The position numbers and the translations under genes were made by a program. A stretch of DNA of 10,942 nucleotides from a virus (lineage: Duplodnaviria; Heunggongvirae; Uroviricota; Caudoviricetes), in IMG/VR virus record IMGVR_UViG_2778261459_000006; one strand, given 5' to 3'. The notes beneath the pieces are model-generated. The model did not search any database, was not told the DNA's origin, and worked only from the letters and a program-made list of their open reading frames with translations. How positions within the stretch are numbered: the stretch's first letter is position 1; each line of letters begins with the position of its first letter. Positions 2,085-10,942 of the stretch are shown here, in pieces.

Positions 2085-2130
2085 ATTCCCTGAGGGCCGC
2101 GCCGCATCTGGACTACGCCGCCCATTAAGA

Positions 2131-2200
2131 GGTTTTAAGAGAAAAAAAGATAAGAGTATTAAGATCAGGATATTTATTTTTCATAGATCTATGATTGGTG
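2131..2200. other. AT-rich tract next to the iterons; possible DNA-unwinding element
   Basis: AT-rich sequence including A7 and T5 runs and GATC sites, immediately after a GC-rich block (2093-2125). Confidence 0.35.
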
Positions 2201-2525
2201 ACCTTCGGAAAATCATCCGGGTATTGCTAGCTTGCTATTGGCCTGGCAGTGGGCCTACGGCTGGGAACTGGAGAACATGAAACGACGTAAGGCACGGAGC
2301 GCCCACCATAGGCAGACACATAAACATCTGAGAGCGCGCCTTCTATCGCGCTACGCGCTCAATAAAAACCAACGACACCGCCATCCTGAAAGACCAATGG
2401 TTTTATCTCGTATACAGACCAGACATGAAACAGCAGGCTGAAGTGAACACTCAAGCAAGTTTATCCCGCCGCAGACTACCGCAAACTATCATGACCGTGC
2501 AGAATTCGAACTGAATGCCCCCTAG

Positions 2526-2635
2526 AACGCGATGAACACACATACCCGCTACGATTGCATACCTTAAAATCTCACCTCACCACAGAGCGATTGAGACGCC
2601 TTAAAATTGATGCGATTTCGCTAAATTTTTTCACT
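2526..2635. repeat. Long imperfect direct repeat, copy A (about 110 bp)
   Basis: Aligns with 2836-2946; shared blocks AACGCGATNAACACACATA and TTAAAATNGATGCGATTTC..TAAATTTTTTCACT. Confidence 0.85.
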
Positions 2636-2674
2636 TGATGCAGAGCTGTATGCGTGAAGGACAGTTGCGTCCGC

Positions 2675-2735
2675 AACTTTCTTGTTCAAAACCCCAGCCA
2701 TCAAGCGTTGAGCCGAAACTTTCTTGTTCAAAACC
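2675..2735. repeat. Two perfect 19-bp direct repeats, AACTTTCTTGTTCAAAACC, 42 bp apart
   Basis: Copies at 2675-2693 and 2717-2735, lying between the two long direct repeats. Confidence 0.85.
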
Positions 2736-2835
2736 TGGCAAGCCTCACAACCTCCAACGGAGGAAGCTGGGTTAATCAGCTTGATTCTGAGCCGATTGCC
2801 AGCCGGACTACTGACCAGATACTGCCAGGCCATTC

Positions 2836-2946
2836 AACGCGATTAACACACATAAGCGCCACACTTACTTACCTGAAAACTTCACAGCGTCACAGCGCGT
2901 TTTAGACACGTTAAAATCGATGCGATTTCATTAAATTTTTTTCACT
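2836..2946. repeat. Long imperfect direct repeat, copy B (about 111 bp)
   Basis: Aligns with 2526-2635, 310 bp downstream of copy A; the 3' end contains the small palindrome AATCGATGCGATT. Confidence 0.85.
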
Positions 2947-3072
2947 CGCCTGAATGGTGGCAATCAGGACTGATTGCAACATTGCCCCGCCTCGATACTG
3001 AGCGCATAATAAATACATACATTAAGCGGAAACGTCATTAACAGATTTGGAAAAAACAATGGGTTAAACATC

Positions 3073-4425: not shown

Positions 4426-5001
4426 ATGAGAAATGAAATCAAATATCAACATATCAAGCGTCTGTGGTGTCTAAAAGATGGCGTTATTTTTACGAGATGG
4501 GGCAATAAGCCTGTTTCTTTCTCCTGTAAAGTAAACGGGCGCCGCTATACAACGATTAAAGTTAACGGAAAATGGCACGCAGTTCTTATTTATGAAGCTA
4601 TTTTTATGCTGTTCCATGACCGCCCAATCGCTGAAGGAAAAGAAATCCACCACAAGGACGGCGATCCAGAAAATAACGCAATTGACAATCTTGTCGAGCT
4701 AACCAGAACGCAGCACAAGAGGATTCATCAATATCAGTGCAACGACCCGCTGCGCGGTATTTGCCTGAATCAAGGCGCATGGGAATTTAAATGGTATGAC
4801 GATAACGGAATATGCCGCAGCCGACGTTTCCACAGTATTAACGAGGCAATAAACTTCCGTGCCGAAATAGAAAAACCTCGCAGAAGAGAATTACGATTGC
4901 TAGGCTTGAACTGTCGTAAAAAATATCGCGGAATTACCGCAAGCCAACTACGCAAAATAAGCCGGAAGCAAAATTCTCGCTTATGGCGCACACACATTTA
5001 A
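4426..5001 (+). CDS. HNH endonuclease with an AP2-like DNA-binding domain, 191 aa
   Basis: HNH signature IHHKDGDPENNAIDNLVELTRTQHKRIH, then an AP2-like segment RGICLNQGAWEFKWYDDNGICRSRRFHSINEAINFRAEI. AAGGGA RBS upstream. Confidence 0.85.
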   Translation: MRNEIKYQHIKRLWCLKDGVIFTRWGNKPVSFSCKVNGRRYTTIKVNGKWHAVLIYEAIFMLFHDRPIAEGKEIHHKDGDPENNAIDNLVELTRTQHKRIHQYQCNDPLRGICLNQGAWEFKWYDDNGICRSRRFHSINEAINFRAEIEKPRRRELRLLGLNCRKKYRGITASQLRKISRKQNSRLWRTHI

Positions 5002-5302: not shown

Positions 5303-5998
5303 ATGAGCAAAACACAGGAAAGAATACACGAGCTTGAGGCTAAATATAGCCGCTTGCTGACTGAGCGTGACCATGCAACTGGCGCTGATCGCTATCTTGC
5401 GGAAAAAGAACTGAAAGCTACTCGTAAGATGATCATTAAGTTGCACGGTAAAAGCATTACAGAAGAGATACAGGGCCAAATACCTGACATGGTGAAACAT
5501 GCACTTGCTGGTGTAACTGCCCAGGTAACCGAACTGCGTAAACAAGCTGGCATGAAGGTTAATGCTGACGAAAAGCCGGACGAAACGCCAGACGAAAAGC
5601 CGCGTGATGAGCGTATCGCTGAGGCTTTGCATGTGGTTAAGAGCAATCTGCTTAACATGGAAATTGATGACCTCATCGACCTTCGGGATCGTGTCCTCAA
5701 GGCGGTTGAAAGTCGTAACCAGGCAGCAGAGCAAAACAAGCTGGCAGACATGACGGTTAACGCGAACCACGTCGGAGCACCGGACGCCGCCAGTTACTTT
5801 GACCCTAATCTGCCGAAAGAGATAGCTGACTACCTCGATCCGCCGTTGCCGCCAGAAATTGAAGCGCATTTCGCCGAAACGAAAACGGTCGCAGGGGTTG
5901 ACCTGGATTCATACTTTCAGGGCAACAATGAAGCGGCAGGGATTGATTTAGACGAATATTTCCTGCCAAGCAAGCACTACAGCGTAAGTAAAGACTGA
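5303..5998 (+). CDS. Hypothetical protein, 231 aa, with acidic C-terminal repeats
   Basis: GGGAGA RBS 7 nt upstream of the ATG. Short repeats DEKPDETPDEKP and DLD(S/E)YF / YFDPNLP / YLDPPLP. Followed by a terminator. No family recognised. Confidence 0.7.
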   Translation: MSKTQERIHELEAKYSRLLTERDHATGADRYLAEKELKATRKMIIKLHGKSITEEIQGQIPDMVKHALAGVTAQVTELRKQAGMKVNADEKPDETPDEKPRDERIAEALHVVKSNLLNMEIDDLIDLRDRVLKAVESRNQAAEQNKLADMTVNANHVGAPDAASYFDPNLPKEIADYLDPPLPPEIEAHFAETKTVAGVDLDSYFQGNNEAAGIDLDEYFLPSKHYSVSKD

Positions 5999-6005
5999 GC
6001 AAACA

Positions 6006-6026
6006 GGGGCCGCAGCGCCCCTTTTC
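6006..6026 (+). terminator. Rho-independent terminator after the 231-aa gene
   Basis: Stem GGGGC / GCCCC with a 6-nt loop, followed by TTTT. Confidence 0.6.
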
Positions 6027-6045
6027 ACTTTCTGGAGATGAGATC

Positions 6046-6324
6046 ATGTCAACGTCAATTACACTTCGGATCTGTATGGGTATGGCACGCGTTATCACGA
6101 AAGAGGTCACAGATATTAAGCACAGCAGCCGGGAGCTACCATTGCGCCGCCAGCAGTTGCGGATTTTCGCCAGTTACGTTTTTGGCACGTTCGCATCACT
6201 GAAGCGCAAATTGAATGGCGGGCCGGTCAGCAATGAAGAAGCGAATTTTTTAAAAAGACTCACGATGATAGAAAAAGACCTGCACACGCAGTTAGAAAGT
6301 ATCAAGGCAGACGTAGGCGAGTAA
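6046..6324 (+). CDS. Hypothetical protein, 92 aa
   Basis: ATG at 6046 with GGAG 9 nt upstream; stop TAA at 6322-6324. No family recognised. Confidence 0.5.
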   Translation: MSTSITLRICMGMARVITKEVTDIKHSSRELPLRRQQLRIFASYVFGTFASLKRKLNGGPVSNEEANFLKRLTMIEKDLHTQLESIKADVGE

Positions 6325-6375
6325 GTTAGCGAGGTGTTAGCGAACGATAGCGGGTAGTTAGCGAACGATAACGGG
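6325..6375. repeat. Tandem direct repeats of GTTAGCGA; two extended 19-bp copies, GTTAGCGAACGATA(G/A)CGGG, at 21-bp period
   Basis: Copies at 6325-6332, 6336-6354 and 6357-6375, intergenic, immediately upstream of the tail module. Confidence 0.8.
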
Positions 6376-6458
6376 CCGTTTTTTGAAGTTAGTTTTCAAT
6401 GCTAAAACCGCCGAAATCCGCGCCATACGGGTTTTTGCACTATATGAGGGGCGCTTTT

Positions 6459-6722
6459 ATGGGGGTAATTTTCGGACAAGTACTATGCGCGCGCGAGGCA
6501 ATCATGAAGCAAGACATAGCGGAAAGGCTGGAGATACTCGAAAACCAGCGAGAAGAAGCCAGACAGATGCGCAGGGAGGCAAATAAAGAGGGCCGGAAAA
6601 AAGATGCATGGCATCTGAGACAATTCATCAACTTTACAAACCGTTGCATCCAGGAGTGCTACATGGAAGACGCAGAAAACTGGCTGGATTCCTTGCCAGA
6701 AAAGCACGGAACAGAGCGATGA
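6459..6722 (+). CDS. Hypothetical protein, 87 aa from the RBS-supported ATG at 6459 (the ORF track starts it at 6399; 6504 is another possible start)
   Basis: GAGGGG 7 nt upstream of ATG 6459. The protein is charged and helical (…IAERLEILENQREEARQMRREANKEGRKK…). Stop TGA at 6720-6722, in the same frame as the next ORF. Confidence 0.45.
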   Translation: MGVIFGQVLCAREAIMKQDIAERLEILENQREEARQMRREANKEGRKKDAWHLRQFINFTNRCIQECYMEDAENWLDSLPEKHGTER

Positions 6723-6743
6723 TTGTTAGACGAAGGGGGTTAC

Positions 6744-7184
6744 ATGCCGATGAGACACCAGGCTGTCATTGAGCAGATCAAGCGGCAGCTAAGGGAAGAA
6801 ATCAAAGAGATTAGCAAGGACGCGGCGACAGCCGCATATGAGATCGCTATCACTGCCGAAGGCTATGCGGTAGCAGATACACCGAGAGACACGGGCACAC
6901 TTATAAACGGCTATTACATCAATATTGACGAAAATCCTGATGGTGCGCACGCCACTTTAGGTAATACGGAACGCTATGCGTATTGGGTTCATGAAATGCC
7001 GGGGATACTGAAAGGTCAACCGCGCGAACATTTCGGGAAGACAAGGGAAGGCGTTGCCTTTGGTGGCGGTACTGAAAAGGGTTGCTATTGGGATCCTGAT
7101 GCAAGGCCCAAATTCCTTGAGCTTGCGCTCGATGAGCATTACGACGAGTTTATGGATATAGCACGCAAATATTTAAAGCGATGA
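6744..7184 (+). CDS. HK97 gp10-like protein (tail completion / head-tail joining family), about 146 aa
   Basis: Motifs PRDTGTL, YAYWVHE and ARPKFLELAL fit the HK97 gp10-like pattern as I recall it. The ORF-track start at 6723 is a TTG; the ATG at 6744 follows a GAAGGGGG RBS. Confidence 0.6.
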   Translation: MPMRHQAVIEQIKRQLREEIKEISKDAATAAYEIAITAEGYAVADTPRDTGTLINGYYINIDENPDGAHATLGNTERYAYWVHEMPGILKGQPREHFGKTREGVAFGGGTEKGCYWDPDARPKFLELALDEHYDEFMDIARKYLKR

Positions 7185-7193
7185 GGTGAGATC

Positions 7194-9374
7194 ATGGGTG
7201 AACAGGTCGGAAGCCTTCAGATAGATATTGACCTGAAGACAAAAAATTTATTGGTAAGCCAAAACCAGGCTGAAAACGCGCTTGATAATATTGGCAATAA
7301 AATCAGCGGTGTGGAACGCAAAACAAAGACCTTTAACACGCAGTTAACTAAAACATCTGCCGCAGTCAAAAGCAGCCTTTCCCCGGCAATTCGCAACGCA
7401 TCGTTTCAGATCGCGGATTTAGCTACCCAATTGCAGATGGGCGGTAATGCTCTGGCGGCATTTGCCGTTCAGGGCGCACAGTTATTAGCTGGCTTTGGCA
7501 CGATGGGCGCGGTAGCTGGCGCGGTGCTGGCTATAGCTGGCGCTATGGGTGGAAGCCTGGCACAAGGCGCTGATAGTGCAGCCGGATCGGTTGAGTACCT
7601 GGACAAGGCGATCACCAAACTGAACGAGGTCATAGCTGTAAATGAGCAGGGCGTGACGGTGATGACTGATAGTTACGCCAATCTTTCTAAGGTTAACGCT
7701 GAAGTAGCGAAACAGATGCGGAACATGGCTGAAATTCAGGCAATTGCAGCACTGCGTGACCTGAAAGAACAGGCAAGCCAGGCACAGGGGGAAATGTCAT
7801 CATTCTGGCGTAGCTTGCAGGGCGGTAAAGCTGACGCAGCAGCAGCAGCACAGGCACTTGATGACCTGGGAATCACGACCAACGACTATAAAGAAGCGAT
7901 CGCCACACTTAACGCCAATCAGCCGGATACACAGGCGCAGATGGCGACGCTGGCTAAATCCGTGATGTATGTTGGCGAAGAATACGATCTGACCAATCAG
8001 CAAGCCTACGAATTCATCCGGGCGCTGAATAAGGCCGCGACAACGAAAACACCGGAAGCAATGCAGGAGCTATCTGGCTTCATGCAGGTATTGCTACAGG
8101 ACACAGAAAACGGTAACGAGGCATTCAGGGAACTGGCTATCAAATTCGTTGATGCACAAACCAAAGGCGCAATGCTGGAAGACCAACTAAACCGACTGAA
8201 AGGCGCTATCAGTGACGCAGCCACAGAAGCCAGAAACGCCAATTTTACCACTATGCTCAACACCGTCGCCGCACGCCTGGCAGCCATTGAGCAAGGTTGG
8301 GAGGCAGGTGTCAGGATGCAGATGAAAGCCCAGGGCTACACTGAAGAGCAGATCGATGAATATGTGAACATGGAAACGGCGTACAGGGATGCAAAAGCCG
8401 CTTTGGACGAGAAGAACAAGGCCGACCGTGAAGCAATTGCGCTATCCAAACGCCAGGCCGCAGAAGCCGCCCGCAAGGCAAAACAGGAAGAAGCTGAAGC
8501 ACAACGCAAGGCCAAACAGTTAGCGGCGCAGAAAGAACAGGCCGGACGCTTTACGCAGCAGGTGATGACGGAATATCAAACGACCGTGGATCCGGCAACA
8601 GGCCAGGCGTTGAACCCTGCCGCACAAGTGGAAATGCAGGAGCAGCAGAAGAAAACGGCATTAGATAAATACAGGCAGTTGGGTGTTTTGGGTGAGCAGG
8701 AGTATCAGAACACGCTAACAGCCATCCAGAAAACTGCATCAATGCGCCGCCAGCAAATCATCAAAGACGAGGCTGACACGTTATTCAACAATCAGCAGCA
8801 GTTGATCGGCACATTTGGCGATTTCTTCGGTGAACTGTCTGGAGTCATAGCAGACGGCGCGGGTGAGCAAAATGCGGCATATCAAGCGCTATTTGCTGTG
8901 CAGAAGGGGTTTGTATTGGCGTCGGCAGCTTTAAGCCTTCAAAAAGCGCTGGCAGAGGCAAACGCCTTACCTTTCCCGGCTAACCTTCCGGCCTATGCGC
9001 AAGCGATGTCAGCAGGTACGCAGATCATTTCAGCTATTCGTGGAATAGCTTTCGGTGGCGGACGCTACAACGGCGGCGCGGTTGGTGCTGGCAACCTGTA
9101 CCGCGTGGGTGAACACGGTAAGCCTGAGATATTCAAGGCGAACAATGGCAGCCAGTACATGATCCCAGGTGATAACGGTCGCGTGATAAGTAATCGTGAC
9201 ATTGGCGGCGGTGGCGGCGTAACAATCAACAGCCCGATCACCATTAACACTACGAATGGCTTCAGTGATGAAGACTCAAGGCGTCTTGAGGAAGCGATGA
9301 AGCGCGTAGCTATGGGCGTTTGCAGGCAGGAGTCAACCAGACCGGGAGGAATGTTAGCCCCGCGCCGCCGTTAA
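7194..9374 (+). CDS. Phage tail tape measure protein, lambda gpH-like, 726 aa
   Basis: N-terminus MGEQVGSLQIDIDLK, then a Gly/Ala-rich hydrophobic segment (…AAFAVQGAQLLAGFGTMGAVAGAVLAIAGAMGG…), a K/A/E/Q-rich helical region and a glycine-rich C-terminus with GNLYRVGEHGKPEIF. This resembles lambda-H-family proteins by eye. Confidence 0.8.
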   Translation: MGEQVGSLQIDIDLKTKNLLVSQNQAENALDNIGNKISGVERKTKTFNTQLTKTSAAVKSSLSPAIRNASFQIADLATQLQMGGNALAAFAVQGAQLLAGFGTMGAVAGAVLAIAGAMGGSLAQGADSAAGSVEYLDKAITKLNEVIAVNEQGVTVMTDSYANLSKVNAEVAKQMRNMAEIQAIAALRDLKEQASQAQGEMSSFWRSLQGGKADAAAAAQALDDLGITTNDYKEAIATLNANQPDTQAQMATLAKSVMYVGEEYDLTNQQAYEFIRALNKAATTKTPEAMQELSGFMQVLLQDTENGNEAFRELAIKFVDAQTKGAMLEDQLNRLKGAISDAATEARNANFTTMLNTVAARLAAIEQGWEAGVRMQMKAQGYTEEQIDEYVNMETAYRDAKAALDEKNKADREAIALSKRQAAEAARKAKQEEAEAQRKAKQLAAQKEQAGRFTQQVMTEYQTTVDPATGQALNPAAQVEMQEQQKKTALDKYRQLGVLGEQEYQNTLTAIQKTASMRRQQIIKDEADTLFNNQQQLIGTFGDFFGELSGVIADGAGEQNAAYQALFAVQKGFVLASAALSLQKALAEANALPFPANLPAYAQAMSAGTQIISAIRGIAFGGGRYNGGAVGAGNLYRVGEHGKPEIFKANNGSQYMIPGDNGRVISNRDIGGGGGVTINSPITINTTNGFSDEDSRRLEEAMKRVAMGVCRQESTRPGGMLAPRRR

Positions 9375-10517: not shown

Positions 10518-10942
10518 ATGTATCAGCCAATGACTTTACCGGATCTGCTATTTGCCGCCGCCGACCGCGCGGGCTATGTCAACAGTAGCGGCAAACTGAA
10601 ACGCAAGGGGTTAGCTGATGCTCTCGGTATCGGTGAGCAGGCGCTTAACAGCTACATGAAAGGTAGCCGGGATGTTAGCACAGAACAACTAAATAACATG
10701 CTGACATTGCTTGGCGTGTACGGCATCGCACCATTCAAGGGCAATCAATGGATGGCGCTGGACGTGGATTATAAAGCGCGTAGCGACGAGATTGTCAGTA
10801 ACAAGATGATTGCGCTGGAACGCGATAACCAGCAAAAGGCACAGCAGATCGCAGCACTGAAAGCTGAGATTGATATGTTGAAAAACCAGTTAAGCAACAA
10901 AATTGATATTGTAGACAAACCGGTTAATCAACAAATCGAGAC
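10518..10942 (+). CDS. 5' part of the junction-spanning XRE-type HTH regulator (continues at 1..408)
   Basis: ATG at 10518; the N-terminus has an HTH pattern (GLADALGIGEQALNSYMKGSRDVSTEQL) followed by a coiled-coil-like segment. The frame runs off the window end and is in phase with 1..408. Confidence 0.7.
   Translation, partial: MYQPMTLPDLLFAAADRAGYVNSSGKLKRKGLADALGIGEQALNSYMKGSRDVSTEQLNNMLTLLGVYGIAPFKGNQWMALDVDYKARSDEIVSNKMIALERDNQQKAQQIAALKAEIDMLKNQLSNKIDIVDKPVNQQIE
10866..10942. repeat. Terminal 77-nt exact duplicate of nt 1-77; circular-contig overlap
   Basis: Direct comparison shows 77 of 77 identical, ending exactly at the window edge. Confidence 0.85.

Follow-up and report, generated by a model that had tools for sequence, protein, structure and literature searches.

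The direct repeats at positions 6325 to 6378 of the window (the whole stretch of DNA analysed here, 10,942 nucleotides) form an array of five short cores, one per turn of the double helix. In related elements of E. coli, this array lies directly upstream of a gene for a small-terminase (TerS)-like protein, and in the window that gene and its partner have been replaced by a cassette that contains tail genes. Our best reading is that the repeats are not a control element of a tail operon but would belong to a lost packaging-specifier gene, of which they are the orphaned front end. Going one step further, we see about an even chance that the array is a helically phased binding array for a ring-shaped TerS, similar to cosB or pacL and orphaned in the window; this estimate is based on sequence comparisons.

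The element and its repeat array

Bases 1-77 of the window are the same as bases 10866-10942, and this 77-bp overlap of the ends indicates that the window represents a circular molecule of 10,865 bp, or a terminally redundant assembly. Its main open reading frames (ORFs) are all on the plus strand. The 5' part contains an AlpA/HTH_17 gene and a Rep-like ORF; behind the latter lie the 22-bp iterons and then the genes for a winged-HTH protein and another HTH_17 protein. Next come an HNH endonuclease, three conserved ORFs of unknown function (88, 231 and 92 aa) and the repeats, and the 3' part contains a small 72-aa gene, a gp10-like gene, a gene for a 726-aa tape-measure protein and a serine recombinase. 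The repeats are situated mid-way in this row of genes, which all point the same way and have an HTH_17 gene at their head. The relevant features are:

1929-2083, just downstream of the ORF at 831-1841: 22-bp iterons (ACCATCAGTTTTGTACCCATAT), five to six copies
4426-5001, plus strand: HNH endonuclease gene (HNH_3, E=1e-10), part of the operon-like gene string that includes the array
6046-6324, plus strand: 92-aa ORF, conserved in the family, directly upstream of the array
6325-6378, plus strand: phased repeat array, consisting of a partial unit (6325-6335) and two 21-bp units (6336-6356 and 6357-6377)
6327, 6338, 6348 and 6359 (TAGCG) and 6369 (TAACG), plus strand: cores of the array, spacing 11/10/11/10
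6504-6722, plus strand: small 72-aa gene (MKQDIAERLE...), in the slot held by the terS-like gene and its partner in relatives
6744-7184, plus strand: HK97 gp10-like tail-completion gene (phrog_5, E=7.5e-9)
7194-9374, plus strand: tail tape-measure protein gene, 726 aa (phrog_1538, E=3e-100)

The product of 6744-7184 also gives a weak match, under the cut-off, to the Pfam family HK97-gp10_like, and its homologue in relative L008 is annotated as HK97 gp10 family. The 3' end of the tape-measure gene (9153-9316) has 84% nucleotide identity to the tape-measure gene of phage mEp013. Thus, this 11-kb element lacks capsid, portal and terminase genes, yet it has a gp10-like gene and a full tape-measure gene; together with the mEp013-like 3' end, this suggests that the element is a satellite that supplies or replaces tail parts of a helper. 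HK97-like terminases have HNH proteins as accessory factors; by analogy, the HNH gene at 4426-5001 would fit an HK97-like packaging machinery. Phage mEp013 also has an HNH gene upstream of terS. The iterons and the adjacent ORF 831-1841 (336 aa, no family match) are probably a replication origin and its initiator.

An earlier note had described a 19-mer that occurs twice at a 21-bp period with a third, partial copy, and this description was borne out by direct reading, by TRF and by shuffling. Starting at 6325, 6336 and 6357, the letters of the array read GTTAGCGAGGT, GTTAGCGAACGATAGCGGGTA and GTTAGCGAACGATAACGGGCC, respectively, and then run into a stretch of Ts. The 19-mer GTTAGCGAACGATA(G/A)CGGG, with R at position 15, has two exact matches in the window (6336-6354 and 6357-6375), and the partial copy is at 6325-6335; no match was found in 200 dinucleotide shuffles, even with three mismatches allowed. 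TRF reported 6327-6375 with a period of 21, 2.3 copies and a score of 75. Each 21-bp unit is composed of two half-units, such that the basic motif is the pentamer TA(G/A)CG, present five times with a period of 10.5 bp, which is one helical turn of B-DNA. In first-order Markov simulations, at least five phased cores were obtained in 0 of 1000 cases and at least four in 1 of 1000, and a scan of both strands of the window revealed no second phased TA(G/A)CG cluster.

Two further details of the earlier description require adjustment. Firstly, the repeats had been placed in the gap between two gene groups. The array does lie between the 92-aa ORF, beginning 1 nt past its stop, and the tail-side genes; but since the conserved small gene downstream most likely starts at the ATG at 6504, the gap is about 180 bp and the repeats fill only part of it. 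Secondly, the site had been thought to be dimeric. The array has no dyad symmetry: it consists of five direct half-units at 10.5 bp, and of five to seven direct units at 11 bp in relatives, so that a dimeric site is not supported.

Relatives with and without the array

The relatives of the window (referred to by L numbers) reside in E. coli chromosomes and have a highly mosaic make-up. Most of them are located between eutB and eutA, beside intZ, which is the site of the cryptic prophage CPZ-55 in strain K-12, and others are located beside rssA. A single phased TA[GA][CT]G array is present in each of L001, L007, L008, L013/14, L015, L019/20, L022, L023, L028 and L029. In all of these except L001, the array is directly 5' of a terS-like gene of either the long or the short type, while only the start of such a gene, ATGGGGG, is retained in the window. 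The gene upstream of the array varies and encodes a member of the 92-aa family, a cyclophilin (PPIase), or a protein of 78 or 100 aa.

Several results support the assignment of the downstream gene. The proteins of L007 (WP_187195932.1), L008 and L002 score 40.2, 30.8 and 47.6 bits, respectively, against PF20901 (Sf6_terminase), for which the curated gathering cut-off is 27 bits. A profile built from these three family members matches the structure of Sf6 gp1 (3HEF) with E=5.4e-14 over residues 6-101, and it also matches the Sf6 gene 1 structure 4DYC, covering the helix-turn-helix and oligomerisation regions. Judged by these profile matches, the neighbour of the array in relatives is a genuine TerS homologue of the Sf6 gp1 type. 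YffO of K-12 belongs to the same Sf6-gp1-like family; its homology to Sf6 Gp1, its helix-turn-helix and its GRP AT-hook have been noted independently, and its function was called unknown (PMC10380284). Behind the terS-like gene there is in every case a conserved partner gene; its product has 105-134 aa in most relatives, and in K-12 it is YffP with 197 aa. Of 5426 complete E. coli genomes, about 226 contain a yffO-like gene and only one contains long-type terS DNA.

CPZ-55 itself (L021; NC_000913.3, 2561989-2562113) is a decayed member of the family, in which yffO is the TerS-like gene and yffP takes the position of the partner gene; yffO is preceded by a degenerate array of TAACG, TTAGCG, TTAATG and TTATTG at about 11 bp. 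CPZ-55 (intZ-yffL..yffS) thus resembles the elements studied here in that it belongs to the same family, occupies the same eutB/eutA site as many relatives and encodes a TerS of the same family (PMC10380284). It differs in having only a decayed array, whereas the window, a 10.9-kb circle, contains tail genes, a serine recombinase and iterons next to a Rep-like ORF.

The proposal that the repeats control the tail module does not agree with this distribution. L004, L005 and L006 contain neither a terS-like gene nor an array; in these elements the small gene directly follows the 92-aa gene without any repeats, and L004 and L005 also contain the tape-measure gene. The opposite combination, an array in the absence of any tail genes, is found in L019/L020, L013-15, L028 and L029. 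Neither is the 92-aa gene the constant partner of the array, as far as gene content tells: homologues are present where there is no array (L004-6 and L016-18) and absent where there is one (L007, L013-15 and L029). The 92-aa protein and the HTH_17 regulator were both considered as the binder of the array, and both were rejected because their distributions do not track it; L001, with the array, and L006, without it, for example, have identical copies of the HTH regulator WP_000999973.1.

Conservation within the array is concentrated in the cores. Between the window and L001, 24 of 25 core positions are identical compared with 20 of 28 spacer positions (p=0.026); between the window and L029 the values are 24/25 and 16/28 (p=0.0011), and between L001 and L029 they are 25/25 and 13/28 (p<1e-4). 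All three pairwise comparisons therefore display the conservation of core over spacer that is expected of a TerS recognition site. L029 contains five perfect TAGCG cores at 11/10/11/10 spacing with very different spacers, and each of the four long-type lineages that carry an array shows this alternation of 11 and 10 bp. As the alternation is kept across lineages, it argues for recognition as B-DNA on one helical face, and not for an RNA signal. Because the cores are conserved while the spacers diverge, and because of the helical phasing, the array looks like a protein-binding site, and to this extent the interpretation of the earlier note is supported.

The short-type relatives have units of 11 bp, and their arrays take up all of the space between the stop codon and the ribosome-binding site within the operon. 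The copy number of the L002-type unit, AATTCG(GGGGT/CTATC)A (L002 7003-7061), varies from five to seven between E. coli strains, as judged from a comparison that included L025, L026 and L027 and in which the flanks are nearly identical. The long-type lineages L016-18 and L030, whose TerS-like proteins have amino-acid identities of 85-86% and 82%, respectively, have kept the leader of the gene, and no array was found in the DNA examined (from 2.8 kb for L030 to 20 kb for L016). The TerS proteins of L022 and L002 are 75% identical over the N-terminal 75 aligned columns and 86% over the rest; despite this similarity, their repeat types are TTAGCG and AATTCG, respectively. Once the variable N-terminal tail was excluded, no convincing covariation between the TerS DNA-binding domain and the repeat type was seen. 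On the other side of the same comparison, TerS-like proteins with no more than 23-50% identity to one another are preceded by the same TAGCG core.

A cassette exchange at the terS start codon

The sequence between the array and the small gene contains three segments of different origin:

6379-6458, plus strand: conserved non-coding leader of the long-type terS-like gene (..AGTTTTCAATGCTAAAACC..GGGTTTTTGCACTATATGAGGGG..), containing the former terS ribosome-binding site; aligned with the leaders of L007, L019, L001, L013, L016 and L030
6459-6465, plus strand: vestigial terS-like start ATGGGGG at the recombination junction, in frame with the downstream small gene
6466-6503, plus strand: segment TAATTTTCGGACAAGTAC..., which in L004/L005 directly follows the last sense codon of the gene of the 92-aa family and precedes the small gene

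In L007 (E. coli PEC145), positions 7004-7141 are 94% identical to 6323-6460 of the window, with an identical array, and form the leader of a gene annotated as 'terminase small subunit-like protein'. L019/L020 (Logan contigs from SRR22355848 and SRR22356112) agree with the window in the array and leader and almost fully in the end of the 92-aa gene, but continue with an intact terS-like gene, a 109-aa partner and a resolvase, and are devoid of tail genes; L019 is probably circular with a size of 8.5 kb (30-bp terminal overlap). The PF20901 gene of L007 and L019 opens with ATGGGGGAATTGACG..., while in the window ATGGGGG (6459) runs directly into TAATTTTCGGACAAGTAC... and the terS-like gene and its partner are absent. 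No TerS-like protein was detected when the ORFs of the window were compared with PF20901 and the TerS-family profile. The protein encoded at 10-408 was considered as a TerS homologue and rejected, as it shares only a GGRPAKF arm, similar to the AT-hook arm of TerS (hhalign probability 1.6%).

Since the ATG at 6459 is fused to a sequence that elsewhere follows the 92-aa gene, this alignment shows that a cassette composed of the small gene, the gp10-like gene and the tape-measure gene has taken the place of the terS-like gene and its partner, with the junction at the terS start codon. The window shares the junction at the terS-like start with L001. Positions 6436-6465 are identical to L001 (30/30); over positions 6466-6503 the identity to L001 is 34/38, and L007 and L019 have no related sequence there. 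Upstream, 6319-6378 is 60/60 identical to both L007 and L019, compared with 48/60 for L001. The perfect match to the terS-bearing L007 and L019, combined with the match to the terS-less L001 over 6436-6503, suggests that the window is a recent recombinant, and that it probably acquired its array by recombination with a terS-bearing relative. The ATG at 6459, which still has the ribosome-binding site of the lost terS in front of it, opens the reading frame of the small gene, so that an 87-aa product (MGVIFGQVLCAREAIMKQ..., 6459-6722) is possible. In L001, the vestigial ATG opens an ORF of just 17 codons whose stop overlaps the ATG of the small gene (ATGA), and by this comparison the in-frame fusion protein is not conserved.

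The same history leads to the explanation that the array in the window may be a relic without function, derived from recent recombination with a terS-bearing relative and not yet decayed. We consider this explanation possible, albeit doubtful. The composite origin of the region around the junction and the lack of a TerS-like gene in the window both speak for it, and CPZ-55 of K-12 provides an example of what a decayed array looks like. However, L001 has the same junction with a diverged array in which all five cores are intact, and this is unexpected under neutral decay. It should be noted that recombination could also explain the intact cores of L001. Alternatively, the array in the window may still act, for instance as a chance translation or transcription context for the genes at 6504-9374.

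A possible packaging site and its alternatives

According to the reading of the array as a packaging site, it would be the recognition array of a satellite-encoded TerS of the family of Sf6 gp1 and E. coli YffO. The TAGCG cores, one per helical turn, would all be exposed on one face of the DNA, and the helix-turn-helix domains of an oligomeric TerS would bind successive cores, with the DNA being bent or wrapped. The ring geometry assumed for this TerS comes from the Sf6 literature. The bound array would then mark the DNA of the element for the large terminase of a helper phage, in the manner of lambda cosB or SPP1 pacL. Autoregulation of the terS-like gene through this binding would also be possible. 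In the window, illegitimate recombination at the terS start codon would have swapped the terS-like gene and its partner for the cassette with the small gene, the gp10-like gene and the tape-measure gene, and this replacement would have left the array and leader orphaned, either as a recent relic or as a cis signal that needs TerS in trans. This reading is favoured by the position of the array in front of terS-like genes whatever the gene upstream, by its absence from the terS-less loci L004-6, and by the conservation and phasing of the cores. Against it stand the long-type lineages L016-18 and L030, which have the gene but no array in the DNA examined, the different repeat types of L022 and L002, the absence of a TerS-like protein from the window, and the candidate helper phages, in which no similar site was found. 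Moreover, a search at the DNA level gave no long-type terS-like gene that might serve in trans in genomes with an L001-type orphan array, given how rare long-type terS DNA is among the complete genomes.

Repeated TerS sites upstream of terS are of a known kind. In lambda cosB, repeated R sites located beside cosN are bound by TerS (PMC4669245). The likeness to the array lies in short, repeated and non-coding TerS-binding elements that are placed directly 5' of terS, confer packaging specificity and travel with terS (PMC4669245). There are also differences: cosB has three 16-bp R sites (R3, R2 and R1) in mixed orientation and an IHF bend, and lambda TerS, gpNu1, is a dimeric winged-helix protein of another fold family than the Sf6-type TerS of the array-bearing relatives. 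The array family, on the other hand, has five to seven direct repeats, one per turn, no IHF-like site (searched in 6300-6500 of the window) and no identified cosN.

A second comparison is provided by the pac region of SPP1, in which direct repeats span promoters and the start of the terS gene (PMC4737164). SPP1 and the SPP1-like phage SF6 share with our elements the sets of direct repeats at the terS start and a ring-shaped TerS with a helix-turn-helix (PMC4737164), but the sequences and spacing of the repeats and the host differ, and the TerS proteins are not close relatives. The isolated DNA-binding domain of SF6 TerS has little preference for the pac repeats; therefore, repeats near terS are no proof of TerS binding (PMC4737164).

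A third comparison concerns satellites. SaPI TerS, and GpsA/GpsB of PLE with their pac site, likewise combine a DNA-recognition component of their own with a cis signal and use the large terminase of the helper (10.1101/2024.04.22.590561). These specifiers have been defined experimentally, whereas the array family is known here from sequence alone, and the window differs from both systems in that the specifier gene itself is missing. Moreover, PLE mimics the pac site of its helper, whereas the array is not similar to sequences of the candidate helpers mEp013 and mEp021. The nearest E. coli phages are those of the mEp021 group, whose TerS is about 33% identical to the long-type protein. The regions upstream of terS in mEp013 and mEp021 showed no similarity to the array and leader above shuffled controls, and no phased array was found in 50 kb of mEp013; mimicry of a helper pac or cos site was rejected on the basis of these comparisons.

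The main competing function, which we consider unlikely, is that of an operator or activator array for a transcription factor of the element, the helper or the host, with an internal promoter for the downstream genes. Response-regulator and winged-helix proteins bind direct repeats of 10-11 bp, and conserved, phased direct repeats just upstream of an ORF start are what such a site would look like. A shared external factor would also easily explain why one TAGCG core is kept in front of such dissimilar TerS proteins. In addition, yffO is said to be sigma-38 dependent, which implies a nearby promoter (PMC10380284). However, no sigma-70-like promoter was found on either strand of 5900-6900, which leaves the expression control envisaged in the earlier note without a promoter of this type to act on. 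Furthermore, the arrays of L022 and L002 abut the ribosome-binding site and leave no room for a downstream promoter; an array that fills the gap from stop codon to ribosome-binding site within an operon is hard to reconcile with an activator site upstream of a promoter. Other observations against an operator are that the tail-side genes of L004-6 do without the array, that WP_000999973.1 does not differ between L001 and L006, and that the array is located in the middle of a co-oriented string of genes headed by an HTH_17 gene. Thus, what is left of the control site postulated in the earlier note is its appearance as a protein-binding site, which is evident from the phasing and the conservation of the cores relative to the spacers, whereas the link to the tail genes, the dimer and the promoter are not supported.

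It is conceivable, although we judge it quite improbable, that the array is a portable cis packaging signal in a system in which specifier and tail cassettes are exchanged at one slot, and that the window is packaged by the TerS of a related satellite or helper. The specifier cassette of the CPZ-55-like family would consist of the array, the terS-like gene and its partner, and the tail cassette of the small gene, the gp10-like gene and the tape-measure gene. If this were true, a satellite would exploit the packaging specifier of another satellite while re-tooling the tail of its helper.

Plasmid R1 parC consists of arrays of 11-bp direct repeats upstream of an operon. The least probable explanation, with very little weight in our view, is that the array resembles it in function as a centromere-like (parC-type) or architectural site of a non-terminase protein, or that it is a slippage repeat without a specific partner. 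The arrangement of the 11-bp arrays in relatives is similar to parC, the window is circular and replicon-like with a Rep-like ORF and iterons, and the variation from five to seven copies among L002-type strains shows that slippage occurs; but scans of the main ORFs of the window with Pfam, PHROG and NCBIfam named no partition protein, elements integrated in chromosomes have the array just as well, and pure slippage does not explain cores kept across lineages with diverged spacers.

Other types of sites were looked for at the same locus. No terminator-like site was detected at 6325-6460, and an RNA element was rejected for the array and leader, which have a fold z-score of +0.84 and no Rfam match at E<=1. 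The possibility that the array represents the iterons of a replication origin was also rejected: the iterons of the window, the 22-bp repeats at 1951-2083, adjoin ORF 831-1841, 4.3 kb from the TAGCG array, and the array is not beside the initiator gene.

Searches of wider collections gave a similar picture. The phage records of the collection contained no close TerS homologue, all tblastn matches being below 60% identity, and searches for related loci with the 92-aa protein or the TerS alignment returned nothing useful from genome or viral contigs. A scan for four phased TAGCG cores returned 7 stretches from viral and 95 from metagenome collections; among the 87 loci fetched, none had a TerS-like protein or resembled the window, and these matches were set aside as unrelated tandem repeats. 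The viral contig L003 (IMGVR_UViG_3300019889_000038, IMG/VR, 6773-6848) has an exact match to the 18-mer GTTAGCGAACGATAACGG, with GTTAGCGA and CTAAGCGAG nearby. This match is intergenic in an unrelated contig with primase and methyltransferase genes and is probably due to chance, being within the estimated chance expectation.

A description of the phased TAGCG array, or of the family of CPZ-55-like elements that hosts it, was not found in the searchable literature. If the array is a TerS site, it would provide a simple DNA signal for a widespread and uncharacterised family of small E. coli elements that includes CPZ-55 of K-12. The presence of one core per helical turn would be a prediction of DNA wrapped around a ring-shaped TerS, and the array could serve as a natural substrate for addressing the sequence specificity of such rings.

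The window contains several other repeats. A 34-bp tandem repeat at 4-70 (and 10869-10935) in ORF 10-408 gives rise to a duplicated peptide (..NKxDIVDKPVNQQ..), and a 12-bp repeat present three times (GACGAAAAGCCG) at 5567-5602 in ORF 5303-5998 encodes the low-complexity stretch DEKPDETPDEKP. Two direct repeats, one of 106 bp with 78% identity (2526-2631 and 2836-2941) and one of 23 bp (2671-2693 and 2713-2735), fall in the largely non-coding region 2100-3070, parts of which are common to many relatives.
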